DNA of 64,000 bases from a virus (lineage: Duplodnaviria; Caudoviricetes). The notes under the pieces were generated by a model, which was given only the letters and a program-made list of their open reading frames with translations, was not told the origin of the DNA and ran no database searches. Where the stretch lies: the IMG/VR virus record IMGVR_UViG_2974668079_000001, positions 1 to 64,000 of that record; one strand, 5' to 3'. Position 1 is the stretch's first letter; every line of letters starts with the position of its first letter. Shown here one piece after another: positions 64 through 64,000 of this stretch. A program made the position numbers and the translations under genes.

Positions 64-296
64 TTGGGGACCACGACCAACGACCATTTACTAATGGACC
101 TCGACCACGACCACCGGGACCATCGGACAATGACCGTTAGTAAATGGACCATTGGACCGGAGGGGTTTGTAAATTATCATGGGGGTGTCGTATAGTTCGT
201 GGACCAATTTTTTCCGGGACCAGTTTTGAAGTTTTTACTAAAACGGAGGACCAGATGACCAGACCGAAGAGGAGATTGATTGTAGTCGAGGACCGA
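64..296 (+). repeat. Cluster of short direct (G)GACC repeats
   Basis: 16 GACC copies counted by eye between 67 and 296, all on the + strand, irregular spacing, interleaved with three TTASTAA sites. Confidence 0.75.
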
Positions 297-959
297 TGCT
301 TCCGGGGACATGCCCCCATTCGAATTGTGCGGGGCTCTGCGAAGGCTTCCGTATGCTATCAATGTCATCGTATGCAAAGAAAGCACGCACGCATGGTAGC
401 ACGCTGCCACAACCCAAAGGACCCAAGGTACAAGAACTACGGAGGGCGCGGGATCAGCGTATGCCCAGAATGGCGTAACTCATTTACTAAATGGTATGAG
501 GACTTCGGCTACCTCGTAGATGGGAATGACCTGACTATGGACCGTAGGGATAACGATGGGGATTACGAGCCGGGGAATATGCGTGCAGCCACTACCCAAG
601 AGCAAAACCGCAACCAACGAAGAAGTGTTTTACTAACGTACGATGGGGAGACGCTGAATCAACAGGTGTGGGCAGATAGGTTCGGCTTTCATAAATCCAG
701 TATACAGCGACGCCTTGGTGGGAAGTACCGGAATGATATAGAATGGGTACTCTTTGGCGTACGCACTACTATTACTAAAACGGAGGTACTGATTACTAAG
801 GACAGGAAGCGGTTGAACTTGCGTGCTTGGTGTAGATCGCTGGGTTTCTCACTACGCACAGTAGAGGACCGGGTATACAAGTTCGGCTGGAGTTATGCGC
901 AGGCACTCGGCTTTGCCTCCCGGAAGGGAAAACTTAGACCACCGCGTACAAAGGATTAG
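255..959 (+). CDS. HNH endonuclease (phage homing-type) with C-terminal DNA-binding repeats
   Basis: RCHNPKDPRYKNYGGRGISVCPEW...TMDRRDNDGDYEPGNMRAATTQEQNRN is the typical phage HNH signature. GGAGGA RBS precedes ATG 255 (ORF track start 144 is probably too long). Confidence 0.85.
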   Translation: MTRPKRRLIVVEDRCFRGHAPIRIVRGSAKASVCYQCHRMQRKHARMVARCHNPKDPRYKNYGGRGISVCPEWRNSFTKWYEDFGYLVDGNDLTMDRRDNDGDYEPGNMRAATTQEQNRNQRRSVLLTYDGETLNQQVWADRFGFHKSSIQRRLGGKYRNDIEWVLFGVRTTITKTEVLITKDRKRLNLRAWCRSLGFSLRTVEDRVYKFGWSYAQALGFASRKGKLRPPRTKD

Positions 960-969
960 TAAATAATAG

Positions 970-998
970 TTGCAGTTAGTAACACTGTGGCATATACT
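970..998 (+). promoter_or_regulatory. Sigma70-type promoter
   Basis: TTGCAG-17 bp-TATACT, intergenic; spacer begins with TTAGTAA. Confidence 0.7.
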
Positions 999-1033
999 CT
1001 TTATACACCAACTAACTAAGAAGGATTAGTAAA

Positions 1034-1330
1034 ATGAAGGACTTCAATATGAGCGAGGAGCTTACTCGCGTACAGGCTGGCTGGTATGAGCAGTCTAAGG
1101 ACGCCGTGTACAACTTGAAGGATGTTACTAAAGCACTCACAGACGGCAAGTCGCTAAAGCATTGTAAGCGCATGGTGGAAGACATCCCCGGTATTGGTCT
1201 CTCCCAACGTACGCAGGAATATTTGCAGGTGGCTTTGAACTGTAAACGCATGGAGAACTTTAGTAAATGCTTGTTCAAGGCTTATCAAATTCAAACGCGT
1301 AATGCAGCAAGTCTGAAGAAGGACTCGTAG
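1034..1330 (+). CDS. Hypothetical protein, 98 aa
   Basis: ORF with AAGGA RBS downstream of promoter; no recognised motif. Confidence 0.7.
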   Translation: MKDFNMSEELTRVQAGWYEQSKDAVYNLKDVTKALTDGKSLKHCKRMVEDIPGIGLSQRTQEYLQVALNCKRMENFSKCLFKAYQIQTRNAASLKKDS

Positions 1331-1331
1331 A

Positions 1332-1556
1332 ATGGTTAAACCGACACACCGCACACTGGTAGTAACTTCTAAGGGTCGTGTACCCTACGATGAGAAGCAT
1401 TACTACCACACTGGCAAAAAGGGAGAGGATGTTACGTTAGTAAACGAGCGTAACTTCAAAACGGTACAGGGACAGCGATTCGACCTTGTACTTTTCGTTG
1501 GCAACATATCTGGGGAAGTTCGTACGAAGTTCGCTGGGTTGGTTGGAGATTACTAA
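1332..1556 (+). CDS. Hypothetical protein, 74 aa
   Basis: Tightly packed ORF between neighbours. Confidence 0.6.
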   Translation: MVKPTHRTLVVTSKGRVPYDEKHYYHTGKKGEDVTLVNERNFKTVQGQRFDLVLFVGNISGEVRTKFAGLVGDY

Positions 1557-1557
1557 A

Positions 1558-2413: not shown

Positions 2414-2417
2414 TAAA

Positions 2418-2945: not shown

Positions 2946-2949
2946 TAAA

Positions 2950-3330: not shown

Positions 3331-3331
3331 T

Positions 3332-3951: not shown

Positions 3952-3960
3952 GAGGACGCT

Positions 3961-4311: not shown

Positions 4312-4815
4312 ATGGACTCACGTTACACCTTTATCGACCTAGTCAAAGACGTATTCGCAGCACTTAAACGTGCTAAAACCAACGGTGTTACTTTCAAAGG
4401 TCAATCTCCGTCAGCTGTAGCGGCTGACATGGCTAAGTACGACGCTGACCTAGAGAATGCCCCGGTAGAAGACTTGGAGAAGGCTGTGGGGCTTGTGCAG
4501 AGCATTGACGGCACGTTTAAGTCAGGTATCGAAGAGAAGCTTGACTCAATCCTAACACCCTCTGCGGTGATCATGGATTGTGACTTCGACGACATCCTAG
4601 AAGATACCGAAGTGGCTTACTGCGTCGATGCAAACCTAGACCTGCTGACGGTTGGTGCGTACAATGCCAAGGGCGGTTGCTGCGAGTGCTGTCGCCCTTA
4701 CTACCGTGAATCCGTCTACCTACTACGCGCTATCTGTATGCGTACTGGTGACGACATTACTAAAACTGTTCTGGACCGCAAAGCGGCTAAGAACCAAGTT
4801 GGAGACAAGCAATAA
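4312..4815 (+). CDS. Hypothetical protein, 167 aa
   Basis: AAGGAG RBS; CCECC motif near the C-terminus. Confidence 0.75.
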   Translation: MDSRYTFIDLVKDVFAALKRAKTNGVTFKGQSPSAVAADMAKYDADLENAPVEDLEKAVGLVQSIDGTFKSGIEEKLDSILTPSAVIMDCDFDDILEDTEVAYCVDANLDLLTVGAYNAKGGCCECCRPYYRESVYLLRAICMRTGDDITKTVLDRKAAKNQVGDKQ

Positions 4816-5597
4816 TGCAAGTACCAGTCAACATCACAGGTCCAGTGGGATCACTTGCCCTAGAATACATCGGCGGTAACGCTGATAAGGTGATTGAGTT
4901 CGTTAAGAACTGCACCGGGAACACGCCGACGTTTAAAGAGCCGGATGTGTTGGAGTACCCAGTTATCGGTGGTACGCAGCTGATCACCGTTGGCAGTTGG
5001 TTGGTGTGGGATACCACTAAACTGCACTGCATGGATGAAGTTTACTTTAGCAAGAACTTCACGATCATCTGGGAACATCCACAGCAGCCTGTCCCGGTGG
5101 ACGAGCCAGAAGGTCGTGCAATAGGCTCATACGCGATCAACCACTCGACTATCGCTGAAGACTTGGACTTCTACCACCACAACGAGTTTGGCACGCGTAA
5201 GGTACGCTGTATCAAGTCGAACTACGGTGCTGAAGGTCATCCAATCTACGGCTTACTAACTCTAGTTTGGCTAGACGGTGATGTGGCTATGTCGATGCCT
5301 GTTGGTGAGTTGGGAGACACAGACGAGTTCTCAATGGATTACCTCGGCGCGGTAGAAGCTGCTAAGCAGGGACATCGCGTGTGTCGTAAGGGTTGGAACG
5401 GCGCTGACATGTGCCTAGTGTACGTACCAGCGGCAGACATCCCAACGAAGGGAACAGGTCTTACCCCGTTCTTCGGTGATACCATGCCTATGCGTGCTCA
5501 CTGGTTACTAAAAACCGCCACAGGCGATGTAGCCAGCTGGTCCCCATCGACGTCGGATAGTCTAGCGACGGACTGGGAAATCTACTCACCAGAATAA
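4815..5597 (+). CDS. Multidomain protein with C-terminal DUF2829 / Tad2-like domain
   Basis: C-terminal MDYLGAVEAAKQGHRVCRKGWNG...LKTATGDVASWSPSTSDSLATDWEI matches the DUF2829 (Tad2 family) pattern. The N-terminal domain is paralogous to the next three genes. Confidence 0.8.
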   Translation: MQVPVNITGPVGSLALEYIGGNADKVIEFVKNCTGNTPTFKEPDVLEYPVIGGTQLITVGSWLVWDTTKLHCMDEVYFSKNFTIIWEHPQQPVPVDEPEGRAIGSYAINHSTIAEDLDFYHHNEFGTRKVRCIKSNYGAEGHPIYGLLTLVWLDGDVAMSMPVGELGDTDEFSMDYLGAVEAAKQGHRVCRKGWNGADMCLVYVPAADIPTKGTGLTPFFGDTMPMRAHWLLKTATGDVASWSPSTSDSLATDWEIYSPE

Positions 5598-5612
5598 TTT
5601 TACTAAAATGTA

Positions 5613-5641
5613 TTGACTATAAGAAACAGGGGGAATATACT
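5613..5641 (+). promoter_or_regulatory. Sigma70-type promoter with inverted repeat around the -10 box
   Basis: TTGACT-17 bp-TATACT; AACAGGGGGAA-TATAC-TTCTCCCTGTT (10/11 inverted repeat). Confidence 0.75.
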
Positions 5642-5684
5642 TCTCCCTGTTGTCGTTTTTACTAAACCAAAAAAGGAGTCCAAC

Positions 5685-6299
5685 ATGGATAACGTTATGC
5701 CACACCCTATGCCAATCACTTACCGCCGTCCTGAGAAACAGCGCCACGCGGTACAGCTTACTAAGAACAACGTGGGAACGGTAATCCAAGCCTTAGTCCA
5801 CCTTGATGTTCTGGAAAACCTAGTAATGGGCGAGGAGACTACCGATCCGGGCTTTGGTCGCCGCGAACGTGTCACTAAACCCTGCATCACATTCACCCCT
5901 AAGAAGGCGTTTTACAAGCAGTTCCCGGACCGCTACAACAGTATCGACGATGGTGAGGTAGCGATCTTTGAAGACGAGTACCTAGTCTTATTTGGTAACG
6001 GTGATTTCCAAGTCATGTCGGCACAAGAGTTTGAAGCCACTTACAAGTGGGGTCAGGACGAGCCTGCGCCGCTATCACCGTGTGCGGCTCCAGCGCAAGA
6101 TGACTTAGCGTCTATTGCCGGGGACCGCGAGTTCTCTGAGCCTCGTGTAGCTGCGCTGGAGCCAGAGGTGGCTATTGCTGTGGAAGAGGAGATGGAAGAC
6201 CTTGCCGAGCCCATTGAAGAGCCAGAAGAGTACGGCATCGAAGAGCGAGAGGAGTCTCCTCGTGCAAAGCGTATGGCTAAGCGTAATCGTCGTGACTAG
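5685..6299 (+). CDS. Paralog-array protein 2 with acidic then Arg-rich C-terminal tail
   Basis: YRRPEKQRHAVQLTKNN...DEYLV...MSAQEFEATY domain; AGGAG RBS before ATG 5685. Confidence 0.7.
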   Translation: MDNVMPHPMPITYRRPEKQRHAVQLTKNNVGTVIQALVHLDVLENLVMGEETTDPGFGRRERVTKPCITFTPKKAFYKQFPDRYNSIDDGEVAIFEDEYLVLFGNGDFQVMSAQEFEATYKWGQDEPAPLSPCAAPAQDDLASIAGDREFSEPRVAALEPEVAIAVEEEMEDLAEPIEEPEEYGIEEREESPRAKRMAKRNRRD

Positions 6300-6344
6300 C
6301 ATTGCTAGTACGTTTTTACTAATCTAATAATCAGGAGAAGAGTT

Positions 6345-6917
6345 ATGGACTCTACTTTACTAACAGTAACACCGAACAAGCCCTTCCGTGCCGTGCAGTA
6401 CAACGGTAGTAACTGGGCGCAGGTACGTCAGTTTGCTGCTAAGTTTGCTAACGTAGAAATCGCGATGAACTTGAAAGCCGACAGCCCACTACTTGCGCAC
6501 CTTGGCACAGGCAATATACTCATCCCTAAAGGGAACTACGTAGTTGCTTGGGGCAAGTGGGACCTGCGCACGTATTCGCCGGAAGAGTTTACTAAAGTGT
6601 TTGCTGGCATTCCGTCAGGACGTGACCAACTACTTGAGGTCGAGATGGACAATGACCGTATCGTGATGTCTATTGGTGTGGAAGCTATGCGCATGAGCAT
6701 CGAGTCGGGTCAGGCAGACTTCAGCGTAGGCGGCGCAGTCCACGTTGCAGACGTAGACATCTTTGGGCACGAGCTGATCAGCTACTTGAAAGCTGAAGCT
6801 GAAGACGGTGGTACTCCAGTTCATCGCATGATCGATAGCGTAGCGTTGGAAGCACTAGAGCATGGTGCTCACGGTATCATCGAGTTGGACGAAGAAGACT
6901 TAGAGCGAGACATCTAA
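6345..6917 (+). CDS. Paralog-array protein 3, two-domain
   Basis: KPFRAVQYNGSN...GNYVV...YSPEEFTKVF domain plus an unrelated C-terminal domain. Confidence 0.7.
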   Translation: MDSTLLTVTPNKPFRAVQYNGSNWAQVRQFAAKFANVEIAMNLKADSPLLAHLGTGNILIPKGNYVVAWGKWDLRTYSPEEFTKVFAGIPSGRDQLLEVEMDNDRIVMSIGVEAMRMSIESGQADFSVGGAVHVADVDIFGHELISYLKAEAEDGGTPVHRMIDSVALEALEHGAHGIIELDEEDLERDI

Positions 6918-7405
6918 TGGGCGTAGTAACTGTACAGCGAACCAATCCGATCATCGCGCTCCAGTTCACCGGAGATAACCACGAAGAGGTGATCGAGTTC
7001 ATGAAGCAACGCGGTGGGACCACCGTAACGATGCGGTATGACAATTTACTAAAAATTGAATCCGACTGCTTCCTATCATGGACTATCCGTCAGGGTGATT
7101 GGATTATCCACGAGAAAGGGTCCGTGTGTGAGGTCATCTTCGGAGACTTCTTCCCGGATGCCTTCCGCGTTATCGAGAACGGACCGCTGTTTGGTAAGAA
7201 GGTGGTCATCTCCGGTACTTTCGGCAAGGTAACTCGCCACGCTGTAAAAGACCTCCTATCTGCTCGCGGAGCTAAGGTGTTCGGCAGTGTGAACAAGTTC
7301 ACCGACATATTGGTGTGTGGCAAGGACTCAGGCTCTAAGCTTACCAAGGCTAAAGAGCTGGGAATCCGAATCATCTACGAGTCGGAGATTCTGGAACTAC
7401 TCTAG
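6917..7405 (+). CDS. Paralog-array protein 4 fused to a LigA-type BRCT domain
   Basis: NPIIALQFTGDN...GDWII...FPDAF domain followed by LFGKKVVISGTF...GAKVFGSVNKFTDILVCGKDSGSKLTKAKELGIRII (BRCT of NAD-dependent ligase type). Confidence 0.8.
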   Translation: MGVVTVQRTNPIIALQFTGDNHEEVIEFMKQRGGTTVTMRYDNLLKIESDCFLSWTIRQGDWIIHEKGSVCEVIFGDFFPDAFRVIENGPLFGKKVVISGTFGKVTRHAVKDLLSARGAKVFGSVNKFTDILVCGKDSGSKLTKAKELGIRIIYESEILELL

Positions 7406-8437: not shown

Positions 8438-8457
8438 AAAAAATTACTAAAAAGTGT

Positions 8458-8486
8458 TTGACACTCATCTGAAACAACGTTACTAT
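8458..8486 (+). promoter_or_regulatory. Sigma70-type promoter for the AphA-like gene
   Basis: TTGACA-17 bp-TACTAT. Confidence 0.8.
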
Positions 8487-8541
8487 CCTCCCTGTTGAAT
8501 ACATTTACTAATCTACTAACTCAGCAGGGAGTTTTACTAAA

Positions 8542-9117: not shown

Positions 9118-9447
9118 ATGCGTTTCGAGACTATCAATATTTACCACAAGTACGGGAAGTGGATCGGCGGTGGTCAGCTAAGTAGCCGCAGTTTGGCGGA
9201 GCTGCTTTCCGCTGCGGTAAAACCTCACCAACGCGTGGTCTCAATGGTTTACCATGAGAACCACGGCATCTCATCCAACTACGACATAGTCCTAGAAAAC
9301 CACGGGGTGCAGGTGCTGGACAACGTGCATGAGAACCACACGTACTACGTTAACAAGTGCGCTAAGGACTGGCAGGAGGATTCCCTGTTGAATCCAGAAG
9401 CCGAGGCTACGCAGGCTAAGCCAGCATCACGGTCTCGTAGAAAGTAA
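9118..9447 (+). CDS. Hypothetical protein, 109 aa, Arg-rich C-terminus
   Basis: AAGGAG RBS; ends KPASRSRRK. Confidence 0.7.
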   Translation: MRFETINIYHKYGKWIGGGQLSSRSLAELLSAAVKPHQRVVSMVYHENHGISSNYDIVLENHGVQVLDNVHENHTYYVNKCAKDWQEDSLLNPEAEATQAKPASRSRRK

Positions 9448-9878: not shown

Positions 9879-10175
9879 ATGCGCAAAGAAGTATCATGCT
9901 TTAGTAAGAGTGGAAAGCTCACTAAAGACATGAAAGTTATTTTAGACATAGCCACCACTATCGAGTTGGCAATCGTAAACAATCCTGACAAAGACCGAAT
10001 CCAAGTTATTAAGGAAACGGCTCGACGTCTTAAGCAATCACCCCAGTACCGAAAGCTGTGGGCACAGTCGATCCTAAACAAGTACCTACACGCCGACGAA
10101 ACCGTATCCAAGGCACAGCAGGACACTATCGACAGCCTATTCTCGCTCCGGGCGGCTGGGTACAAAACTTACTAA
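9879..10175 (+). CDS. Hypothetical protein, 98 aa
   Basis: GGAG RBS. Confidence 0.7.
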   Translation: MRKEVSCFSKSGKLTKDMKVILDIATTIELAIVNNPDKDRIQVIKETARRLKQSPQYRKLWAQSILNKYLHADETVSKAQQDTIDSLFSLRAAGYKTY

Positions 10176-10843: not shown

Positions 10844-11242
10844 ATGGAAAATATTACGGCTAAGCAGATAGCTGACGACATCGAAGAGCTGTTGGAGAAC
10901 GCTGCTGTGTACATCCAGCGTCAGGTTAATCCCATGCTCTTGAAGATGCGTACAGAGCAGTGCATCGACCTTTACGGATTTGTGATGGATAGGGACTCCA
11001 CGGCTACTTTCTTCCACTGCAATGTACCTGCGGAGGAGATACGCGGTATTTACGCCAGCACGGGCGAGGTACTGATCCGTAAAGAAGTACCGCTAACGCA
11101 TGGTCGTTTGTATCCGTCACTGGCTCTGGCTAAGAACCGTGCTAGTCACCGAGTGGCTAACCGTATTGAGAAGCTGCGAGCGTACAGCCGATCACTGTCA
11201 ACAGTCACCACGAACGACGTCAGCACCATCCAAGTTAAGTAG
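10844..11242 (+). CDS. Hypothetical protein, 132 aa
   Basis: GAGG RBS plus TTTAGTAAA before ATG 10844. Confidence 0.7.
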   Translation: MENITAKQIADDIEELLENAAVYIQRQVNPMLLKMRTEQCIDLYGFVMDRDSTATFFHCNVPAEEIRGIYASTGEVLIRKEVPLTHGRLYPSLALAKNRASHRVANRIEKLRAYSRSLSTVTTNDVSTIQVK

Positions 11243-35861: not shown

Positions 35862-35870
35862 AATGATAAT

Positions 35871-35896
35871 GGGGAGCTTCGGCTCCCCTTGTTTTT
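35871..35896 (+). terminator. Rho-independent terminator
   Basis: GGGGAGC-TTCG-GCTCCCC plus T-rich tail. Confidence 0.75.
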
Positions 35897-35916
35897 ACTA
35901 AGAGGGAATTACTAAA

Positions 35917-36408
35917 ATGTTTATTCGTTTACTAAGCATGGGCGGTACATTACTAAAAGGACTATCTGCGTTCTGGAACCGATACAAATTACTAATTGTT
36001 ATCACCCTCGTCGCAGGAGCTCTCTACCGCGCCTATTCCATCGGATATGACCTAGGGTCTACCTACGAGCGTAACAAGGCTGTGGTAGCCGTTCTGGAAG
36101 CCACAACCAAGGCTCGCACGGAGGAGTTCCAGTACTATAAGAAGCAACTGCGACTTATGACCGAAAAACACAACAAAGAGCTAACACTGGAGAGAGAAAA
36201 TGCTCGGATACAAGCAACCATCGACAACAAGCAACTTACTAAACAACCAGCCTGCAAAATTAGTAAAGACGATGATGCTAAGCCTGTTCTTACTAATGGG
36301 TACGTCGAGCTGTACAACGACGCAGTTCGAGCCGCAAATCGAGCCACCCAAGAAGGAGATACCGGAGGAATTACTAAAACGATGCCCACCGCTGAAAACG
36401 GTGGATAG
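35917..36408 (+). CDS. i-spanin (Rz-like)
   Basis: N-terminal TM plus coiled coil, after the endolysin. Confidence 0.8.
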   Translation: MFIRLLSMGGTLLKGLSAFWNRYKLLIVITLVAGALYRAYSIGYDLGSTYERNKAVVAVLEATTKARTEEFQYYKKQLRLMTEKHNKELTLERENARIQATIDNKQLTKQPACKISKDDDAKPVLTNGYVELYNDAVRAANRATQEGDTGGITKTMPTAENGG

Positions 36409-36532
36409 TAACGACCCGTGGGTTTTACTAAAAGTAGCCACGGAGAATATAGGAACAGCAGCAGTCTGTATCCTTAACTACCACACCCTCCAAGACACTG
36501 TATCCGACAGTGGCGAAAAAGACAGCAACTAA
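36272..36532 (+). CDS. o-spanin (Rz1-like lipoprotein), overlapping the i-spanin
   Basis: MMLSLFLLMGTSS-C lipobox, Pro-rich, IPEELLKRCPPL. Confidence 0.8.
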   Translation: MMLSLFLLMGTSSCTTTQFEPQIEPPKKEIPEELLKRCPPLKTVDSNDPWVLLKVATENIGTAAVCILNYHTLQDTVSDSGEKDSN

Positions 36533-36538
36533 AAACTA

Positions 36539-36572
36539 TTGACAGCCATACTACAGTTCGTGTAGTATGGCT
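36539..36572 (+). promoter_or_regulatory. Promoter of the replication module containing a perfect 12-bp palindrome
   Basis: TTGACA-18 bp-TAGTAT; AGCCATACTACA-GTTCG-TGTAGTATGGCT. Confidence 0.75.
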
Positions 36573-36602
36573 TCCGAACCATATCCAACTGGAGATAACA
36601 TA

Positions 36603-36920
36603 ATGCTTATAAAACCTGAGACGCTATCAGTTCGCCTAGACGTAACCCGCGTCCTATCACCCCGCTGCGCTATCCTGCTGGCGATAATACAGCACACGTA
36701 CGACCACAGCTGTGCGTCCCACAATGACTGTCGGATGCACGAAGGCAAGCGTTGGGTACGAATCAGTAACTCTGAGTTCCGAGAGCTAACAAGCTTTAGT
36801 CCAACCACGATTACTAAAAGTATCCAATCCCTAGTGTCGTTCAGTATGATCGAGACTAAGACTCTTACTAAAGATAAAGGTGATGTGGCTAACTGGTTCA
36901 CAGTCAACAAGGAGGAGTAG
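36603..36920 (+). CDS. Small winged-helix protein paralogous to the initiator N-terminus
   Basis: Pattern (AILL..I...C...GKRWVRISNSEFRELTSFSPTTITKSIQSLV...I) parallels the N-terminus of the next gene; GGAG RBS before ATG 36603. Confidence 0.7.
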   Translation: MLIKPETLSVRLDVTRVLSPRCAILLAIIQHTYDHSCASHNDCRMHEGKRWVRISNSEFRELTSFSPTTITKSIQSLVSFSMIETKTLTKDKGDVANWFTVNKEE

Positions 36921-36922: not shown

Positions 36923-37942
36923 ATGCGAGCCTTCCGACTTCCCGATATTCTGCAATCGGACACCACGAGCTTTAACACAGACCTAGCGGTAAAGATTGGG
37001 ATAACGCCCGCTATCATATTGGGAAGTGTTGCTTACTCGATAGAAGCTCTCTACGAGAGTGGGACCGCTAAGGAGTATGATGGGAGCTACTGGGCTAGGG
37101 TATCCACACGCAAGCTAGCCGAGCGATTCCCGTTCCTGTCTACCCGCACGATAGAACGCGCCAAGAAGCATCTAGTAGATTTGGGATTAGTAAGAATTGA
37201 CTTTATTGGATCTGAGATGATGGATGTTAAAGTTGATAACACATCGTGGTGGTCCATAAACGAAGATTCTATTAGTAAACTGTCCAGTTTAGGGGATACC
37301 GACAAAATGGCGGATACCCCCTCAGACCGACAAAATGACGTAGTAGGGTCTCCGCCAGAATGTCGGGGGGATCACCGTCAAAGTGGCGGACAATATAAGA
37401 GTAATATAAAAGAGAGTAAAGAATCTTCTACCGAAGATTCTACCCTATCTAAGCGTACGCGTAGGACTCGTAAGCAGAGAACTAAGGACTTTGGCATTAG
37501 TAAGGGTAACTTACCGCAGCGTAGAAAGAGAACTGCGAAGAAAGAACCTGAGCTTACTAAACACACTTTCGTTCTTGAGAAGCTGGGAGGTGAAAAGTAC
37601 GTTCTTACTAAAGCTGGCTTTGATAAGCTACTTGAGTTTATTAAGCGCCAAGACATCCAGCTTAGTGAAGAAGAGCTCAACGCATGGATTGAACTCAACA
37701 AGTCCAGCTTAGGGCTGAGAATCACCTCGAAGACGCAGGTAGTCAAGACCATCCAGAACTGGCTAGCTAGATTCAACGAGAGTGACCGCTGGAGGCTTGA
37801 TAAGCAGTTGGGTAAGGGTAACGACCCGGCTAGTGGTCGAAACCGCCCACAGAGGCTTAACGGGAATATCAGCGACAAGCACACGGAAAGTGAAATACGC
37901 GTACCAAAACACTTACAAAGATTAGTAAATAAGGAGTCTTAG
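36923..37942 (+). CDS. Replication initiator (lambda O / DnaD-like wHTH)
   Basis: SFNTDLAVKIGITPAIIL...YWARVSTRKLAERFPFLSTRTIERAKKHLVDLGLV; contains iterons; followed by a DnaC-like gene. Confidence 0.8.
   Translation: MRAFRLPDILQSDTTSFNTDLAVKIGITPAIILGSVAYSIEALYESGTAKEYDGSYWARVSTRKLAERFPFLSTRTIERAKKHLVDLGLVRIDFIGSEMMDVKVDNTSWWSINEDSISKLSSLGDTDKMADTPSDRQNDVVGSPPECRGDHRQSGGQYKSNIKESKESSTEDSTLSKRTRRTRKQRTKDFGISKGNLPQRRKRTAKKEPELTKHTFVLEKLGGEKYVLTKAGFDKLLEFIKRQDIQLSEEELNAWIELNKSSLGLRITSKTQVVKTIQNWLARFNESDRWRLDKQLGKGNDPASGRNRPQRLNGNISDKHTESEIRVPKHLQRLVNKES
37298..37425 (+). repeat. Putative replication origin: four iterons plus an AT-rich tract
   Basis: ACCGACAAAATGGCGGA (37298), ACCGACAAAATGACGTA (37326), TCCGCCAGAATGTCGGG (37351), ACCGTCAAAGTGGCGGA (37374), then an A-rich run. 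Confidence 0.75.
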
Positions 37943-43150: not shown

Positions 43151-43768
43151 ATGGTAATGCTTCGTAAGCGGGTTGTTCACGAGCGTACGAAGGGTGGCAG
43201 GCTCCGGGCTAAGATAGTTCGTGAGCCTGTTACGCATAGTAAACCGCAACCGCGAAAACGCAAGAAACGAAACCTAAAGGACTCGGAGCATAGCCAGCTC
43301 TGCTTGTTAGCCAAGAAGTGGATTCTTAAGAACGGGTTTGGGGTAGCGATTGATGACCGGATGAAAGCAGCCTGCGATACCGGGGAGCAGCCCGACGCTA
43401 TGGGGTGGAATGCTTCCGTTAGCATCGTGATCGAGGTTAAAACATCTCGGTCTGATTTCCTCGCAGACAAGAACAAGAAGTTCAGAGCAAACCCAAGGCT
43501 TGGTATGGGAGACTGGAGATTCTATCTGTGTCCAAAGGGTCTGATTAGTAAAGATGAGGTCCCCGAAGGATGGGGGCTCCTGTACTACCACGAAGGCAAG
43601 ATCCGCCGGGTGCATGGCGGTCCTAAATCCAACGGGTGGTCGTTCGACGGTATCCCCTTTGTAGGCAACAAAGACTGCGAGATGTCGTACATGTATAGCG
43701 CACTTAGACGTATGGTTGTGCGTGGACACTTAGAGTCGATGTACTCAATGGATGGTATTAAGAAATGA
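43151..43768 (+). CDS. PD-(D/E)XK nuclease-fold protein (MmcB-like)
   Basis: EQPDAMGW...IEVKTSRSDFLAD...GDWRFYLCP...PEGWGLL. Confidence 0.8.
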   Translation: MVMLRKRVVHERTKGGRLRAKIVREPVTHSKPQPRKRKKRNLKDSEHSQLCLLAKKWILKNGFGVAIDDRMKAACDTGEQPDAMGWNASVSIVIEVKTSRSDFLADKNKKFRANPRLGMGDWRFYLCPKGLISKDEVPEGWGLLYYHEGKIRRVHGGPKSNGWSFDGIPFVGNKDCEMSYMYSALRRMVVRGHLESMYSMDGIKK

Positions 43769-45924: not shown

Positions 45925-47079
45925 ATGTCATTGACTAAAGAAATCCTACAAGAACTTATCGAAGCGACTAACACTCCACGTGCTAAGCGTGACTCGCACG
46001 AGAAGCACTTGCAGAAAATCATCAAGGCAGTTGGCGCTCTGGACGACGACCAATGGGACGCTCTTTCGGACGAAGCTGCTGAGTGGTACAATGACGCGGT
46101 TAACGCAATCAACGATGGTCAAGACATTCCGGGTTCTGATAAAGACCCAATGGAAGAGACCGAAGAAAAACCAGCGCGTTCACGCCGTGGACGTAACACA
46201 GAAACTGACGAAACGGAAAACAAACCAATGAAAAAAGTTCTAGTAGCAATCGCACTTGCAGAAGTAGTTAAAGGCATCACAGTAACAGTAGTTTGCGGTG
46301 ACGATACTTTTGAAGGCGAAGTAATCGACGTTACTAAAAAAGGTCGCGGCAAAGCAGCTAAAGTTGAAGAGTTCACTCTGAAGACTGCGGACGGCGAAGA
46401 AGTGTTCGGCGCTGAAGATCTAATCTTCGACGAAGGTGACAAGATCGAACGTCACGACGAAGTAGCTGAAGAAGAGAAAAAGCCTGCTCGTTCTCGTCGC
46501 GGTGCTAAGAAAGACGAGCCAGAAGCTGAAGAAAAACCAGCTGGTCGCGGTTCTCGTCGCGGTGCTAAGAAAGAAGAGCCGAAAGCGGAGCCAGTAGAAG
46601 TTGAAACCGAGATCGCGTTCAACGACATCGCTAAAGACGACAAGCTGAAGCTTCAAGTCGAAGACGACGCTTTCGAAGGTACTGTTAAAGCGGTTAAGAA
46701 AACTGGTCGCGGCAAGAACGCTAAAGTAGCTGAGTTCACTTTAGTAACAGCAGACGGTGAAGAAGTTTTCGAAGCGGACCACATTGTGGTTGAAGAAGGC
46801 GATAAGATCATCCGTATCACTATGGAAGAGCAAGCGCCAGCTAAAGAAGAAAAAGCAGCGGGTGGTCGTCGTGGTCGCGGTGCTAAATCTGGTAGCGCAC
46901 CTTCAGCAGCTCACCAAGTTCGCCAGCTTATCTGTGAGAACCTAGACTCAGACAAGAAAGCGATTGAAGAGCTAATGGCTGAAAAAGGCATCGACATGAA
47001 ACCGTCAACGTTCGATGTACTTTACAGCGAAGCGCACAGCCTAGTAGCAGTAATGCGTGAACTAGACATGCTAGCGTAA
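45925..47079 (+). CDS. Abundant-type protein with duplicated beta domain and basic KPARSRRG repeats
   Basis: Two ~65-aa copies (aa ~110-176 and ~231-297); strongly biased codons. Confidence 0.8.
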   Translation: MSLTKEILQELIEATNTPRAKRDSHEKHLQKIIKAVGALDDDQWDALSDEAAEWYNDAVNAINDGQDIPGSDKDPMEETEEKPARSRRGRNTETDETENKPMKKVLVAIALAEVVKGITVTVVCGDDTFEGEVIDVTKKGRGKAAKVEEFTLKTADGEEVFGAEDLIFDEGDKIERHDEVAEEEKKPARSRRGAKKDEPEAEEKPAGRGSRRGAKKEEPKAEPVEVETEIAFNDIAKDDKLKLQVEDDAFEGTVKAVKKTGRGKNAKVAEFTLVTADGEEVFEADHIVVEEGDKIIRITMEEQAPAKEEKAAGGRRGRGAKSGSAPSAAHQVRQLICENLDSDKKAIEELMAEKGIDMKPSTFDVLYSEAHSLVAVMRELDMLA

Positions 47080-47130: not shown

Positions 47131-47157
47131 CGTATTAGTAAGACGAGGTTTAGTAAA

Positions 47158-51488: not shown

Positions 51489-52340
51489 ATGAAACAGTAT
51501 CTAGCACTTGCTGAGCGTATCGTCTCTGAGGGCGAGTGGATCGAGAATGAGCGCACGGGCAAAAAGTGCCTTACCGTGATCAACGCGGACTTAGAGTACG
51601 ATGTGGGAGCAAACCAGTTCCCATTAGTAACAACTAGAAAGAGCTTCTGGAAAGCTGCGGTAGCTGAACTGCTGGGATACATCCGTGGCTACAGCAGTGC
51701 TGCTGACTTCCGCAAACTGGGGACCAAGACTTGGGATGCTAATGCCAATCTAAACGAGGCGTGGCTAAGTAACCCGCACCGCGAAGGCTACGACGATATG
51801 GGTCGTGTGTACGGTGTGCAGGGTCGTGCTTGGACAGGCTCGGACGGCACTGTGGTAGACCAACTCCGCAAGATCGTGGACGATATTACTAAGGGTGTGG
51901 ATGACCGTGGGGAGATCCTTAACTTCTACAATCCGGGAGAGTTCCACCTAGGATGCCTACGACCTTGCATGTATAGCCACCACTTCTCGCTACTGGGAGA
52001 CACGCTTTACTTAAACAGCACTCAGCGGAGCTGTGACGTACCCTTGGGTCTTAACTTCAATATGGTGCAGGTCTACGTGTTCCTAGCAATTATGGCTCAG
52101 ATTACCGGGAAGAAGGCAGGTAAGGCTTACCACAAGATTGTTAACGCTCATATCTACGAAGACCAACTAGAACTCATGCGCGACGTACAGTTAAAGCGTG
52201 AACCACTACCACTACCTACGCTTTGGATTAACCCAGACATAAAGACGCTGGAAGACCTAGAGACTTGGGTAACAGTGGACGACTTCCGTGTGGACGACTA
52301 CCGTCACCACGACCCAATCAAATATCCATTCTCAGTTTAG
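51489..52340 (+). CDS. thyA: Thymidylate synthase, Vibrio/Pasteurellaceae type
   Basis: [29 protein letters not shown], ends KYPFSV; 283 aa as in Vibrio ThyA. Confidence 0.97.
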
Positions 52341-56928: not shown

Positions 56929-57456
56929 ATGCCTGTAATCCAAGCAGCCAGAAAACCCACTACGCTATCCTGCATTCGTTGGGAGGGTGATAACCTACGT
57001 GAAGTACTTGAGTTCACCGGGAAGCACTTTAAGTTTGACAAGTGGTTCGCCAGCTTCGAGGAGTACGAAGCCCATGTACGATCTGAGGGTAACATCTTCA
57101 AGGTATTCACCCGAAACGGTGTTACTGAAGCAGCCGTAGGTGATTACATTATCCGTGGGGTAGAGGGTGAGCACTATCCATGCAAACCAGACATCTTTGA
57201 CGAGATCTACGATACCAGTGGGCGTGTGTTTGTGCCTATGGCAGACGCTAGCACGCAGGAGTTAGCGGCGCGTCTGGAAAAATGCAAGGGGTACGAACCC
57301 TACATGCTTAACTGGATCTGCGTGTCGTACAAAGAGTGTGGTATTTCCCGCATCCCAGTCTACGAGTGCTACCACCCGGACCACACCGTGTTCTACGCAA
57401 GCTCAGAGTTGCAGCAGGCAGTAGACGCATTTAGTAACTACCCCTACCTAGGGTAG
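56929..57456 (+). CDS. Canonical member of the RKKP...GDYII...YPCKPDIF small phage domain family
   Basis: ARKPTTLSCIRWEGDN...AAVGDYIIRGVEGEHYPCKPDIFDEIY. Confidence 0.8.
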   Translation: MPVIQAARKPTTLSCIRWEGDNLREVLEFTGKHFKFDKWFASFEEYEAHVRSEGNIFKVFTRNGVTEAAVGDYIIRGVEGEHYPCKPDIFDEIYDTSGRVFVPMADASTQELAARLEKCKGYEPYMLNWICVSYKECGISRIPVYECYHPDHTVFYASSELQQAVDAFSNYPYLG

Positions 57457-57490: not shown

Positions 57491-57505
57491 CAATTGGAGA
57501 CCAAT

Positions 57506-58096
57506 ATGATCAACGAAGACCTGTACATGGGGCTAGACTGCTCCCTCAACAACTCAGGCATAGTGGTCTTTGGTAAAACTACTGGATACATTTATGAAAG
57601 CATTAAGCCGAAGTGTAAGGGGTATGAGCGCCTTGCTTATATCCACGATAGTCTTACTAAAATACTCGCTAAATACCCAAACATCAAAGGCGCTAACATC
57701 GAGCGGTATGCCTACAACAAAGGTGGTAATGACAAGTCCAACGCCGGGATGGTATTTAACATCGGTGAAGGCGGTGGAGTCGTGCGACTGGCGTTATTTT
57801 CGGCTGGCATACCTGTCCTGCTCACTAGCCCAAACACTGGGAAGAAGTACGCAACTGGAAAGGGTGTTGGGGGCAAGGAGATAATTCTCAAGGAAGTGTA
57901 CAAACGCTTCGGTGAAGACCTCGACGACGACAACTTAGCCGATGCTTTGGTAATGGCTCGTATAGCTTACCACTGGTTCACAGACGACTACGAAGGACTT
58001 ACTAAGGCTCAGATAGAAGCGGTTAAAGCAGCCTCTCTTGAGCATGAGCCCCCTAAGCCTACTAGCCGTCGTAAACGGAGAGTAAAACGCAAATGA
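57506..58096 (+). CDS. ruvC: RuvC-like Holliday junction resolvase
   Basis: MGLDCSLNNSG, IERYAY, IGEGGGVVR, KKYATGKG, DDNLADA. Confidence 0.88.
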   Translation: MINEDLYMGLDCSLNNSGIVVFGKTTGYIYESIKPKCKGYERLAYIHDSLTKILAKYPNIKGANIERYAYNKGGNDKSNAGMVFNIGEGGGVVRLALFSAGIPVLLTSPNTGKKYATGKGVGGKEIILKEVYKRFGEDLDDDNLADALVMARIAYHWFTDDYEGLTKAQIEAVKAASLEHEPPKPTSRRKRRVKRK

Positions 58097-60929: not shown

Positions 60930-60930
60930 C

Positions 60931-61548
60931 ATGATTCATTTTACTGTTAGTAAAAACGCAACACTAGCCCACGCTTGGGTTCGCAACGTCCTGTCCGCAG
61001 AGGGACAGATTCCATTCAGCACTATGATGCTTGATGTGGAGTTCAGCTTCCATGCCGAGTCGCTATCAGACTCCGACGATGTAGCCCCGCACGAGTACCT
61101 AGCTGTGTACGCTGGGCAAGTGCTGGAACTGTTTGACGGCGTACACATCCTGTGGGACAAGGACGAGCGTGCTCAAGTGGTAACAGCTGAAATTCACGAG
61201 TACTACGGTGGGGTGCGGTCACTAAGTACACCCTACAACCCAACACTTGAGCACGTGTCCGGTATGATCTACGCGGTAATGCACCGCATCCTCTGTGCGA
61301 GTAACTTTACTAACTCAGAAGACCCGGAGCTGGAGCTTGTTTGCGTAAAAGTGTCGGACCGAGTTACTAACACTACCGTGACCTATGATTCCCTAGCATT
61401 CGAAGGGCGCTTAGCCCTAAACGCTACCACCTTCCGCTGGAGCTCTTCAGTACTGGAAACAGCCGCGCTTGATGTGGTATCTCTGTTTTCTGAGGACGTC
61501 CGTATAGATGTTCCAGTGGCAGAGAAAACGGTAGACAAGTATGAGTAA
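60931..61548 (+). CDS. Degenerate QueD/6-pyruvoyl-tetrahydropterin synthase-fold protein
   Basis: LAH..VRN, FD....LWDKD, YNPTLE and the overall spacing follow long-type QueD, but the catalytic C..HGH and VxET residues are absent. Confidence 0.65.
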   Translation: MIHFTVSKNATLAHAWVRNVLSAEGQIPFSTMMLDVEFSFHAESLSDSDDVAPHEYLAVYAGQVLELFDGVHILWDKDERAQVVTAEIHEYYGGVRSLSTPYNPTLEHVSGMIYAVMHRILCASNFTNSEDPELELVCVKVSDRVTNTTVTYDSLAFEGRLALNATTFRWSSSVLETAALDVVSLFSEDVRIDVPVAEKTVDKYE

Positions 61549-61909
61549 CACGGAATTAGGAATCGGTGATACCGTGGAGGTGATTGTCACTGCCAATCAC
61601 TTCCTAGAGAAATTTTGTAGAGTGGGTCGTATTACTAAGAAGCATGGCTCATTCTACTGGGTAAAGTTCAAGTTTAACTTTAGTAACGACAATAAGCATT
61701 TGCACTGTTACGACCAGATTGACTTCGGACCATTTAGCATCAACCAATTAAAACTGTTGGAGAAAAATACCAATGACACAAGCAGCGAAGAAAGTACTAA
61801 GCCTAACGGACATCATCGGAAAGTTCGCAGGCAGCGTAATCGAGTTGAACCAGAACAAATTTCCCGCAAACCTAGAAAGCGTCGTGCAAGACTTAGCACA
61901 CCACTTTAA
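61541..61909 (+). CDS. Hypothetical protein, KOW/SH3-like N-terminus
   Basis: IGDTVEV...VGRITKK..YWVKF; the C-terminus overlaps the next gene. Confidence 0.55.
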   Translation: MSNTELGIGDTVEVIVTANHFLEKFCRVGRITKKHGSFYWVKFKFNFSNDNKHLHCYDQIDFGPFSINQLKLLEKNTNDTSSEESTKPNGHHRKVRRQRNRVEPEQISRKPRKRRARLSTPL

Positions 61910-62957
61910 GTTCTTCTCACAAAACCTAGGCGGCGTAGATATGGTGGACTACAGCCGTGGTGAGTTTTACGACTTACTACACGAGTACATCATGGCAGAC
62001 GTCCGCTGTGAAGAGTGGAATCGCCCCGACGGTGAAGGGCACTTTATCGACCTAGTTGCACTTGTGCAGAACGTGACTTACGCCCTCTATGGTCCGCTAA
62101 GCGTTGTCCATGAAGTACCACCAGAGAATGATTACTCACGCTTGGATTCATTCGATAGTAAGAAGCAGGTGCGTGCAGCGGTGATCGCATCGTACTCGAT
62201 TGAAGACTGTGAAGTGACTGTCCACGTGGAAGGCGACGACCAGTACCCACTAGAGACAATCAAAGTAACCCACGACTTCTTCGCCCGTGCTGTACCAGTG
62301 GCGGACCAGTCAGTTTTAGTAATCTACGAGAACGGCTATCAGTCGCACAGCCCACTCGATGTATTCAAAGCTGGTCACGTACGTTCATTCGCTATCAAAG
62401 ACCCGGCGTCTACAATGCCTCCGGCAGCGTACATGGACAGCTGTGAGATGACGCTATCGGAACAGTACTTTGAGCCTGACGCTACGATCATTAACTGCAT
62501 GAAAGAGTTCATCGTTAGTGGTAACGTTCTGGATGGGTTCAAGAAGTCTATCTACTACGGCAAAGAAGCCCCGGTAGTTGACTTGATGGAAAAGCTAGAG
62601 CTAACAGACATCGCAGACTGGCGAGCACTAAACCCACACGAGCAGAAGATCCTACATGCCGTTCTGGGTATGGCTACGGAGAGCACCGAGTTAGTCGAGC
62701 AAATCTACGGCTACATGTTCCAAGGTAAGGAACTGGACCTTAAGAACTTGTACGAAGAAGTAGGCGACAACTTATTCTACGTAAGCACTATGCTCAAGTG
62801 CCTAGGTGTTTCTTACGAGCAGGCAATGTACGACAACCACATGAAACGCATGAAGCGTTACGCAGGTGGTAAGTTCTCCCCAGAAGCGGCAATCAACCGC
62901 GATGTGGAAGCGGAGTTGCAACAGCTTACTAAGAGTGGTAATCTAGCTGGGCAGTAA
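61773..62957 (+). CDS. Three-domain protein with C-terminal MazG-like NTP pyrophosphohydrolase
   Basis: LHAVLGMATESTEL...EEVGDNLFY...NHMKRMKRY (MazG); middle VIYENGYQSHSPLDVF domain. Confidence 0.85.
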   Translation: MTQAAKKVLSLTDIIGKFAGSVIELNQNKFPANLESVVQDLAHHFKFFSQNLGGVDMVDYSRGEFYDLLHEYIMADVRCEEWNRPDGEGHFIDLVALVQNVTYALYGPLSVVHEVPPENDYSRLDSFDSKKQVRAAVIASYSIEDCEVTVHVEGDDQYPLETIKVTHDFFARAVPVADQSVLVIYENGYQSHSPLDVFKAGHVRSFAIKDPASTMPPAAYMDSCEMTLSEQYFEPDATIINCMKEFIVSGNVLDGFKKSIYYGKEAPVVDLMEKLELTDIADWRALNPHEQKILHAVLGMATESTELVEQIYGYMFQGKELDLKNLYEEVGDNLFYVSTMLKCLGVSYEQAMYDNHMKRMKRYAGGKFSPEAAINRDVEAELQQLTKSGNLAGQ

Positions 62958-63010
62958 AGTAAATCAGCTTCCATAACTCTATGTAGGTTCCGGGCTTGGA
63001 CCACATGTTT

Positions 63011-63039
63011 GAGGTCTCCGAAAGGGGACCTCTTTTTTT
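63011..63039 (+). terminator. Rho-independent terminator
   Basis: GAGGTCTCC-GAAA-GGGGACCTC-TTTTTT. Confidence 0.85.
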
Positions 63040-63084
63040 ATCTGTAGAATGTAGGTATCCTATCCCCGGTAAATAGCACTTTAG

Positions 63085-63594
63085 TTGACGGGGAGCCCTA
63101 TGTCAGAACAAGCAGAAGAGAAGCCACGCAGACGTCGCCAGCGCAAGCAGATATTGAGCGTTGCCCAGCGTCGTCTCCAGCGCACGTGGAAGCTGGATGA
63201 AGAGACGAAAGAGAAATTCATCGAAGCGATCCTAAAGGGCATGAGCGAAGAGCGTGCCTGTATGTTAGTAAGAATCAACAAGCTGCACTACTTCGAGAAG
63301 AAGAAGAAAGTACACGAGTACTTGAACTCAGGTATTGAGCCTACGGGTGGGGACGACCCACGCAGTAATATCGACGAGTGGGCTATGTTCATTGAAGAGG
63401 TCGAGGCGGCAGTAGCCGAGCATGAGCTAAACCTAATCGACGACGCCTTAGACATTGATTCTGAGTCGAAGAACAAGAACTACTGGGCGCGTAACATGAC
63501 AATCCTTGAACGTCGTAACCGTACAGACTGGGGTCGTCAGGAATCTATCACACACAGCATCGGGCACTACGACCCGGATGACAGATTCCTTTAA
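63085..63594 (+). CDS. Probable terminase small subunit (HTH)
   Basis: KEKFIEAILKGMSEERACMLV HTH, AVAEHE, W..TILERRNRTDWGR pattern seen in TerS-like proteins; true start may be 63100. Confidence 0.55.
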   Translation: MTGSPMSEQAEEKPRRRRQRKQILSVAQRRLQRTWKLDEETKEKFIEAILKGMSEERACMLVRINKLHYFEKKKKVHEYLNSGIEPTGGDDPRSNIDEWAMFIEEVEAAVAEHELNLIDDALDIDSESKNKNYWARNMTILERRNRTDWGRQESITHSIGHYDPDDRFL

Positions 63595-63610
63595 TCTTAG
63601 TAAACAACCT

Positions 63611-63636
63611 AGGGAGCTTCGGCTCCCTTTTCTTTT
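63611..63636 (+). terminator. Rho-independent terminator
   Basis: AGGGAGC-TTCG-GCTCCCT-TTTCTTTT. Confidence 0.8.
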
Positions 63637-63686
63637 GGGCGTCGTATAGGTGATCGTCACCAACAAAGCCTAGGAGGAATGGCATA

Positions 63687-64000
63687 GTGAAAGAACGTTA
63701 CCGTGACGAGCTCACGTGGTGGGAGAAGCGACTAGGTGTTTGGCGAGTTAACAAGGACTCATACGACACAACTTGGGGCTACTTCGCACCGCGCTGGGCT
63801 CTGGAGTTCAAGGTCAATGCAGGCGGGTACTTTAGTAACCAGTGCTCGCTAGATGTGGGGTTCATCTGGGGACTGTTTCACATTAAGCTGCCGATACGTC
63901 TTAAGAATCACGAGGAGAGCTGTGAGTGGAACGACTACGGCTTTATGTGGTACGAGAACCAATGGGTATTCAAATGGGGCGAGAAGTCTAAGTGGTGGGA
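63687..64000 (+). CDS. Partial hypothetical protein (runs off the window)
   Basis: AGGAGG RBS, GTG start, frame open to the window end (VKERYRDELTWWEKRLG...). Confidence 0.6.
   Translation, partial: MKERYRDELTWWEKRLGVWRVNKDSYDTTWGYFAPRWALEFKVNAGGYFSNQCSLDVGFIWGLFHIKLPIRLKNHEESCEWNDYGFMWYENQWVFKWGEKSKWW

Follow-up and report, generated by a model that had tools for sequence, protein, structure and literature searches.

TTA(C/G)TAA, a hyper-iterated palindrome in the genomes of Mardecavirus phages of Vibrio and a putative docking site on phage DNA

A short interrupted palindrome, TTA(C/G)TAA (hereafter TTASTAA), is repeated throughout the genome of a Vibrio phage held as IMG/VR record IMGVR_UViG_2974668079_000001. 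The stretch analysed here, referred to as the window, is the first 64 kb of this 76,350-bp genome. The word is strict over its seven base pairs, follows the logic of a dyad, is selected at the level of DNA, is spaced for coverage and is conserved throughout the genus of the phage; host DNA is neutral for it, and it recurs in a second phage lineage. TTASTAA is thus a putative docking site for a twofold-symmetric, phage-encoded protein that would bind double-stranded DNA and decorate the phage chromosome, a reading to which we give a little less than an even chance of being right. The dimeric nature of this reader, its phage origin and its purpose are what we infer from these patterns.

The phage is assigned to the genus Mardecavirus, the SSP002/MAR10-like Vibrio siphophages, whose hosts are V. 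parahaemolyticus, V. alginolyticus, V. vulnificus, V. campbellii and V. natriegens. About 40 Mardecavirus isolates are on record, one of them with Vibrio natriegens as its host, and most of the 43 related records are 95-99% identical in the structural region. Nearly all genes of the phage lie on the + strand. An earlier sequence-only reading of this DNA, which had drawn attention to TTASTAA, knew of no account of it in phages; likewise, no description was found in the Mardecavirus papers or the other open literature searched (subscription journals not covered).

Abundance, placement and conservation of the word

The window contains 237 exact copies on the + strand, 141 of TTACTAA and 96 of TTAGTAA, at a mean spacing of 270 bp; the first starts at position 88 and the last at 63832 (extent 88..63838). 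The sequence-only reading had arrived at about 235 copies by hand, with 51 in the first 10.85 kb, and exactly 51 start between 88 and 10850. It had also judged TTAATAA and TTATTAA to be rare, and the window holds 3 and 4 of them, respectively. Over the whole genome the count is 300 (164 TTACTAA and 136 TTAGTAA), about one per 250 bp or 3.9 sites/kb, where Markov models of order 0-3 predict 4.8-18.1 copies of TTACTAA and 5.1-12.2 of TTAGTAA. These are, by a wide margin, the two most over-represented 7-mers of the genome. The excess also persists under a codon-preserving shuffle, which had been named beforehand as a refuting check. Shuffling synonymous codons within each gene, which preserves every protein and per-gene codon usage, yields 25.5±4.4 copies in genes (maximum 39), and shuffling codon order yields 8.9±3.0, against 203 observed.

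The specificity of the word is strict. The 40 different words that differ from it by one mismatch total 224 copies against 236 expected (0.95), which is background level, and TTAWTAA is likewise at background, while CTA/TCA and TAG/TGA variants are not enriched. TTASTAA therefore has the form of a Type II restriction-modification site, an interrupted palindrome with only S at its centre and no tolerance of single mismatches. Extension to TTTASTAAA, previously taken to be usual, is seen in only 39 of the 237 window copies, so that the 7-mer core stands and the extension does not. The A-rich 3' flank tracks the coding strand and not the dyad, which identifies the 7-mer as the core; this flank reflects lysine codons and start-codon context.

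Two thirds of the copies lie inside genes (202 coding versus 98 noncoding or partial copies genome-wide), although their density is far higher in noncoding DNA (~10.8/kb versus 3.0/kb in coding DNA). A copy is carried by 54 of the 65 intergenic gaps of at least 7 nt, and in 27 of 104 genes one lies no more than 12 nt ahead of the start codon. Two stereotyped arrangements are seen there, in which the word either follows the Shine-Dalgarno (SD) sequence (SD-word-A-ATG) or precedes it (word-SD-ATG). Thirteen stop codons fall within a copy, and some copies adjoin the T-runs of terminators or overlap the -10 element of a few early promoter-like sites.

Within genes only two reading frames are used, namely those free of an in-frame stop. 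Of the positions at which the protein permits the word by synonymous choice, 199 of 293 are filled. The permissive tripeptides, [FLIV][TS][KN] and L[LV][IMTNKSR], are themselves in excess, with 293 present against 174±13 after residues are shuffled within each protein; the proteins themselves have thus been altered to accommodate the word. TTA is a minor leucine codon outside the word (11%), and 76 TTA codons lie inside copies. The thymidylate synthase gene thyA provides an example, as it carries two copies in the phage and none in 68 of 71 host orthologues. A conserved LVT acquired one copy by synonymous change; the other required replacement of LTR by ITK (L>I, R>K). Since the product is ~86% identical in amino acid (aa) sequence to Vibrio ThyA, the gene is a recent capture from the host lineage, and both copies have been gained since.

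Comparison with MAR10 (78% nucleotide identity over 85% of the genome) shows that 184 of 234 collinear sites are kept (79%), whereas 24% of random 7-mers are fully conserved. Between these two genomes ~50 sites have been lost and 52 gained, and totals are stable at 300 here, 309 in R12Z and 294 in MAR10. Among sites with a single difference from MAR10 there are 14 C<->G swaps of the centre and no centre changes to A or T, while, genome-wide, A or T is the outcome of 74% of the substitutions that affect C or G. The swaps change the encoded residue (Thr/Ser, Leu/Val) yet preserve the word. Equivalence of C and G together with exclusion of A and T is what is expected of a G:C pair viewed from either side of a dyad, and has no natural sense in single-stranded RNA. 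That selection acts on DNA rather than protein, as had been suggested from the sequence, is therefore upheld by the saturation of permitted positions, the altered amino acids, the C/G swaps and the packing of intergenic gaps.

The centre base is also unevenly distributed along the + strand, being C-rich in the left 44 kb (109:59) and G-rich in the right 32 kb (55:77; chi-square p=1e-4). GC skew is positive throughout the genome, with no switch matching this shift.

Permitted positions that are left unused lie nearer to another copy than those that are filled (median 82 versus 132 bp; Mann-Whitney p=5e-5). The coefficient of variation of the spacing is 0.83, compared with 0.96±0.04 when realised permitted positions are redrawn at random, and none of 2000 draws was as low. 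Selection favours even coverage, with as many sites as coding permits. Among close neighbours, start-to-start distances of 7-11 bp are missing altogether, where ~6 pairs are expected (P=0.001), and 10 pairs start 12-15 bp apart, where 4.75 are expected (P=0.018); the smallest start-to-start distance is 13 bp. An exclusion zone followed by a peak at 12-15 bp is the pattern expected if the occupant covers ~13-14 bp and tolerates or likes a neighbour. Both features fit a bound symmetric protein, and in this respect the earlier proposal of a dimeric protein coating the genome is strengthened; the part of it that allowed for a reader supplied by the host is unsupported, as described below.

Host DNA, other phages and a second saturated lineage

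Vibrio chromosomal DNA (1.59 Mb, 80 Vibrionaceae-type genomes) contains 0.13 copies/kb, an observed/expected ratio of 0.97. Its density in the phage is thus 30-fold above that of the host. In pVp-1, an unrelated phage of V. parahaemolyticus, 50 kb contain 15 copies, where 17.8 are expected. All Mardecavirus genomes examined, by contrast, are saturated.

Judged by DNA polymerase, the closest outgroup is Edwardsiella phage vB_EpM_ZHS (ZHS; 37% aa identity). ZHS has the whole replisome and recombination module in common with the Mardecavirus phage, yet it contains 2 copies of TTASTAA and no comparable word. Nor is any of 79 other IMG/VR contigs with the same clamp-loader family enriched for TTASTAA or any other palindrome. 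ZHS carries dpdA, folE, queC, a queE-like gene and queD, the deazaguanine (preQ0) pathway of DNA modification. In Mardecavirus, a weak QueD-like protein (60931-61548; phrog_2389 E=8.8e-5) is the sole remnant of this pathway.

IMG/VR was also scanned for triple sites, and among the matches listed most were chance matches in AT-rich DNA, tandem repeats or local operators. Saturation is seen in at least two narrow and distant lineages, and further ones may exist. In an unrelated phage contig (IMGVR_UViG_3300035201_000073, 3126-6981) ~7 copies of the 15-bp palindrome TTACTAA-N-TTAGTAA lie within 4 kb and constitute local operators made up of TTASTAA units. A viral contig of 59% GC, also unrelated to Mardecavirus (IMGVR_UViG_3300033070_001131; 6101-6757 and 10881-10908), has contiguous TTAGTAA heptads in arrays of 5, 4 and 2 copies, direct and inverted, directly upstream of genes beside a DnaB-like helicase; by analogy, this layout resembles that of omega-type ribbon-helix-helix (RHH) proteins. 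These two sets of arrays argue that proteins reading TTASTAA exist in the phage world.

The second saturated phage, G007 (IMGVR_UViG_3300014204_000169), is uncultured and has a genome of 74,118 bp with terminal repeats and a GC content of 32.9%. It contains 120 + 114 copies, and the two forms are again the top two 7-mers. Of its permitted positions 195 of 315 are filled, and its genes contain 197 copies, where synonymous shuffling leaves 55.7±6.1. The spacing rule is the same, including the exclusion at 7-11 bp (P=0.0065) and the excess at 12-15 bp (P=0.0085), and the smallest start-to-start distance is 12 bp. Genes of G007 lie on both strands, and the identity of the centre base depends only slightly on which of them is the sense strand. 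An extended form of the word, TTACTAAACTA (G007), is not used in the genome of the Mardecavirus phage. The terminase of G007 is closest (37%) to those of Cellulophaga and Croceibacter phages, from which its host is probably a flavobacterium (Flavobacteriia); its nearest terminase relative (52%) is without the word.

After one round of profile building, the genes common to G007 and the Mardecavirus phage are those for a DnaG-like primase, the clamp, PolA, the clamp loader, UvsY-like and gp32-like proteins and RecA, together with a 384-aa acidic/basic protein and, weakly, the winged helix-turn-helix (wHTH) of an O-like initiator. All of these except the initiator are also present in ZHS, and they occur in 14 to 79 of the 79 clamp-loader contigs (primase 14, 384-aa protein 19, clamp loader 79). 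In G007 PolA is split into two open reading frames (ORFs), and the small proteins of this phage include a Sigma70_r2 protein, a dCMP deaminase, a sulfotransferase and several generic S-adenosylmethionine (SAM) methyltransferases.

Candidate readers and rival explanations

The Mardecavirus phage encodes its own replication machinery, comprising PolA, beta clamp, clamp loader, DnaB-like and SNF2 helicases and a DnaG-like primase, as well as a recombination set with a gp32-like single-stranded-DNA-binding protein, a UvsY-like protein, RecA, RuvC and SbcCD. Further genes specify an orphan methyltransferase, a PadR regulator, a ParB-like protein, ThyA and dTMP kinase. Those that bear on the word are listed in Table 1 with notable clusters of sites; the run at 35895, 35909, 35929 and 35950 lies where the lysis and replication modules meet.

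Table 1. Genes and site clusters in the window (positions counted from its first letter)
Feature	Position	Strand	Remarks
HNH endonuclease	144-959		family absent from G007
Three sites (8444, 8505, 8534) directly upstream of PadR gene	8444..8540		last between Shine-Dalgarno and ATG
PadR-family regulator, 182 aa	8542..9090	+	PF03551 E=6.7e-12
Orphan N6-adenine-type DNA methyltransferase, 217 aa	10186..10839	+	phrog_799 E=1.4e-53; weak Dam/TIGR01712 matches
Close pair in short intergenic gap	20123..20142		copies start 13 bp apart
Densest stretch of the genome	35895..36431		12 sites within the 1 kb from 35501 to 36500
Two O-like/DnaD-like wHTH replication-initiator genes	36567-36920, 36923-37942	+	three 15-nt iterons inside the second gene
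205-aa protein with YraN/MmcB-like (PD-(D/E)xK) features	43151..43768	+	Atlas score 0.96
384-aa acidic/basic protein	45925..47079	+	duplicated beta module, GRGK/RSRRG loops
Close pair after terminator hairpin	47135..47156		15 bp start to start; second copy in SD-TTASTAA-A-ATG layout
thyA	51489..52340	+	~86% aa identity to Vibrio ThyA; TTASTAA at 51624, 51886

Four of these products had been named as candidate readers from the sequence, namely the 384-aa protein, PadR, a wHTH protein (gene at 36603) and the methyltransferase, and each has been weakened. The PadR family is absent from G007, where a weak BLAST match proved to be an SMC/AAA fragment, and the methyltransferase is absent too. In the 384-aa protein a beta module with KKGRGK loops is present twice, alongside acidic linkers and KPARSRRG repeats; homologues of this protein adjoin the beta clamp in many phages of this replisome type. 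From these sequence features it is a plausible general DNA binder, but as a specific reader it is disfavoured by its presence in relatives without the motif. The second wHTH gene contains three 15-nt iterons of its own (ACCGACAAAATGGCG-like; 37298, 37326 and 37374, with spacings of 28 and 48; 37298-37388). Since iterons within the initiator's own gene are the usual arrangement of an origin, the O-like initiator probably reads these. A 12-bp perfect inverted repeat (36544-36572) lies directly before the first wHTH gene.

Other candidates were also set aside. A ParB_N domain is found in this phage below the curated cut-off (23.6 versus 26.3 bits; E=2.6e-6) and not in G007; moreover, in ParB-parS and Noc-NBS (Noc-binding site) systems ParB is expected wherever sites occur, whereas ZHS has ParB but 2 sites. 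The 205-aa PD-(D/E)xK-like protein, a member of a large family, was rejected as the loci of four homologues with 52-55% identity (~18-20 kb each) carry 0, 13, 4 and 0 copies. Single-sequence AlphaFold models of this protein and of a PDDEXK_15-like ORF of G007 have pLDDT (predicted local distance difference test) values of 46.8 and 41.5, respectively, and a PDB sequence search in pursuit of such candidates gave no match. A 98-aa protein (9879-10175) shares with a G007 protein a 60-residue local match of 25% identity (E=8e-4 in a single comparison), which was judged not meaningful. A ~100-aa N-terminal domain is common to five proteins (4815-7405; 56929-57456) in which its partners differ and include a Tad2-like domain, BRCT and others; among the genomes compared it is confined to Mardecavirus, and it is disfavoured as reader for that reason. 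Tails of KP-x-SRR-like sequence end a 109-aa protein (9118-9447) and RuvC (57494-58096), and in the fusion protein encoded at 61773-62957 MazG is combined with a Tad5 anti-Thoeris domain.

GC-rich palindromes are strongly depleted over the whole genome. GGCC occurs once against ~171 expected and CCCGGG not at all against ~41 expected; CTGCAG, TCCGGA, CCGCGG and CGATCG are likewise missing, and AGCGCT occurs once. This is classic restriction-site avoidance, which suggests that no base modification protects the DNA at these palindromes.

In the reading we favour, a small, symmetric DNA-binding protein encoded by the phage would dock on each TTASTAA, each bound unit covering ~13-14 bp, and selection would retain as many sites as coding permits, evenly spread, leading to decoration about every 250 bp. 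The mark, 30-fold denser on phage than on host DNA, could be used to organise, protect or single out phage DNA, since with this contrast any cooperative or bridging binder could act on phage DNA only. A shielding or organising role fits a defence based on sequence (GGCC 1 versus 171) and the survival of only a QueD-like remnant. Three points weigh against this reading. Pfam, PHROG and NCBIfam scans of ~60 phage proteins revealed no RHH-type or other compact-site binder; the genes common to both saturated lineages are those of replisome and recombination, which are also found in motif-free relatives; and an enzyme requiring one site in each DNA segment could likewise produce exclusion and even coverage. 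A small, fast-evolving reader could have escaped sequence comparison.

Several enzymatic explanations must be weighed against such a docking site. TTASTAA may be the substrate of a sequence-specific DNA-modifying enzyme, here the orphan N6-adenine methyltransferase, with dense modification serving as a functional mark, as has been debated for the cyanobacterial palindrome HIP1. The strict 3+S+3 palindrome with near-misses at background looks like a Type II recognition site, the methyltransferase is conserved in 37 Mardecavirus records, and HIP1 is a precedent for a hyper-abundant, selected palindrome (PMC5861425). However, G007 has no match to the methyltransferase families phrog_799, PF01555, PF02086, PF05869 and PF00145 and contains generic SAM-methyltransferase domains only, enrichment of an enzyme's own target requires an extra reason, and neither the exclusion at 7-11 bp nor the packing at 12-15 bp is expected of a methylation target. 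Homologues outside Mardecavirus are 26-35% identical, too distant to tell whether they track TTASTAA; the methyltransferase is a candidate writer in Mardecavirus only, and we regard modification as an unlikely explanation. The even, coverage-type spacing would also suit the action points of a phage nicking, cutting or priming enzyme, which might feed the recombination-dependent replication of RecA, UvsY, gp32 and SbcCD or set Okazaki starts, one site being needed per stretch. The replisome and recombination modules of both saturated phages are of one type, with a DnaG-like primase in each, and an HNH endonuclease is encoded at 144-959, but this HNH family is absent from G007 and thereby also fails as reader. 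ZHS and the 79 clamp-loader contigs manage without the word or any other hyper-iterated palindrome, primases read single strands, for which equivalence of C and G at the centre would be unnatural, and the PD-(D/E)xK-like candidate failed the association test, all of which makes this alternative quite unlikely. A word that controls a DNA-translocating nuclease or helicase, in the manner of Chi and symmetric so as to be read from both directions, would spare marked phage DNA and leave sparsely marked host or competitor DNA to be degraded. The 30-fold contrast with host DNA, the apparent benefit of more sites with even coverage and the reliance of the phage on a sequence-level strategy against nucleases (avoidance of GGCC and CCCGGG) agree with this. 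Known Chi and KOPS (FtsK-orienting polar sequence) words are asymmetric, polar and enriched in the host, none of which holds here, no cognate helicase-nuclease was identified, and the packing rule of close pairs would go unexplained; we consider a Chi-like role very unlikely.

Non-adaptive molecular drive, in which biased mismatch repair or gene conversion of the very-short-patch (VSP) kind creates the word and no reader benefits, could in principle saturate permitted positions if strong. Near-miss words are not depleted (0.95 of expectation), however, and the clustering of unused positions near copies together with over-even spacing points to selection on coverage; positional conservation is far above background, and the exact word recurs in G007 with no repair gene specific to the pair. 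Drive is therefore highly improbable. Equally improbable is the binding site of a Vibrio protein recruited by the phage. A host-encoded reader had been entertained in the sequence-only reading, but it loses its footing where both the Vibrio chromosome (0.97) and pVp-1 are neutral and where the second saturated phage, to judge from its Cellulophaga/Croceibacter-like terminase and GC content of 33%, probably infects another phylum. A signal in RNA or translation, be it out-of-frame or bidirectional stops or an A/U-rich initiation spacer, has in its favour the 27 of 104 genes with the word at most 12 nt upstream of the start, the 13 stops inside copies and the TAA that every copy places out of frame on both strands. 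Yet TTAATAA and TTATTAA, which offer the same or better stops, are at background, as are the CTA/TCA and TAG/TGA variants, the interchangeable C/G centre suits duplex DNA and not RNA, and most copies lie deep inside genes in two frames. Such a signal has next to no likelihood.

A more far-reaching form of the docking-site reading is that TTASTAA and a small, fast-evolving reader constitute a portable 'self-DNA barcode' moved between unrelated marine phages. The reader would polymerise or bridge only on DNA with a site every few hundred bases, giving rise to a phage-specific chromatin that shields from translocating nucleases or steers a phage nuclease to unmarked DNA. We regard this extension as rather unlikely; if true, it would be a sequence-based alternative to base hypermodification, consistent with loss of the deazaguanine pathway of the outgroup. 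Whatever its function, a word that fills two thirds of the places that proteins permit and has changed amino acids is among the strongest non-coding constraints known to us in a phage genome. As it is carried by cultured, easily grown lytic phages, the reader is directly accessible. Its identity would reveal by what means a phage can distinguish its own DNA from host DNA when no bases are modified, and reader and word together could serve as a highly compact, orthogonal protein-DNA pair. The signal would be lost if these phages were recoded or codon-optimised.

Comparison with known systems

Stoperators of Cluster A mycobacteriophages, which are read by L5 gp71, are 13-bp, asymmetric, intergenic sites, present in ~24-36 copies and oriented with transcription in temperate phages. 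They resemble TTASTAA in that one phage protein reads many copies dispersed over the genome, as is proposed here. Unlike stoperators, the 300 TTASTAA copies are symmetric, two thirds of them lie in genes and they obey no orientation rule; they are thus neither asymmetric and oriented nor confined to intergenic DNA. No integrase or repressor is evident in this phage.

Chi, KOPS and the DNA uptake sequences (DUS) and uptake signal sequences (USS) are short, exact, asymmetric words, present in hundreds to thousands of copies, enriched in their own chromosome and read by known machines. Like TTASTAA they are written into genes in permitted frames, are evenly spaced and follow a rule of more being better. 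TTASTAA differs in being symmetric and neutral in the host. It shows neither the strand asymmetry nor the host enrichment of Chi and KOPS, with a C:G ratio of 164:136, a host value of 0.97 and a GC skew without a switch. The phi29 p6 and SPO1 TF1 proteins are phage-made and coat the genome, recognising bendability or hydroxymethyluracil DNA. They share with the proposed reader the decoration of a whole chromosome, whereas neither p6 nor TF1 is known to read a strict 7-bp word. Thus, TTASTAA lacks the defining features of stoperators, of Chi and DUS words and of genome-coating proteins, despite a similar logic.

That a 7-bp site can be read by a protein dimer is evident from two systems. The RHH protein omega, the ParB of pSM19035, binds 7-bp heptads as a dimer in direct and inverted orientation (PMC9499535), and the response element of fungal Yap1/AP-1-type basic leucine zipper (bZIP) proteins is TTA(C/G)TAA itself, bound by a symmetric dimer with half-sites that overlap around a central G:C (PMC8977021). 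Omega needs at least 4 contiguous heptads, whereas copies of TTASTAA are never less than 12-13 bp apart genome-wide (minimum 13 bp in this phage) and no contiguous 7-bp repeats occur. Yap1 bZIP proteins are eukaryotic transcription factors, and the identity of the word shows only that a dimer can read TTASTAA. No bZIP protein was found in these phages and, to our knowledge, none is known from them.

Closest in kind is HIP1 (GCGATCGC), the highly iterated palindrome of cyanobacteria, which is 15- to 300-fold over-represented, occurs within and between genes and is conserved (PMC5861425). It overlaps known methyltransferase targets and displays kb-scale periodicity, and it has been argued that it is kept by selection over biased repair, with a role in chromosome structure proposed (PMC5861425). 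Like HIP1, TTASTAA is a hyper-abundant, exact palindrome under selection; it exceeds Markov models more than 10-fold, and its copies lie within and between ORFs and are conserved above background. HIP1, however, is an 8-bp, GC-rich word of a cellular chromosome, whereas TTASTAA is a 7-bp word with a degenerate S centre, packed at 12-15 bp in close pairs and repeated about once per 250 bp along the genome of a lytic phage.

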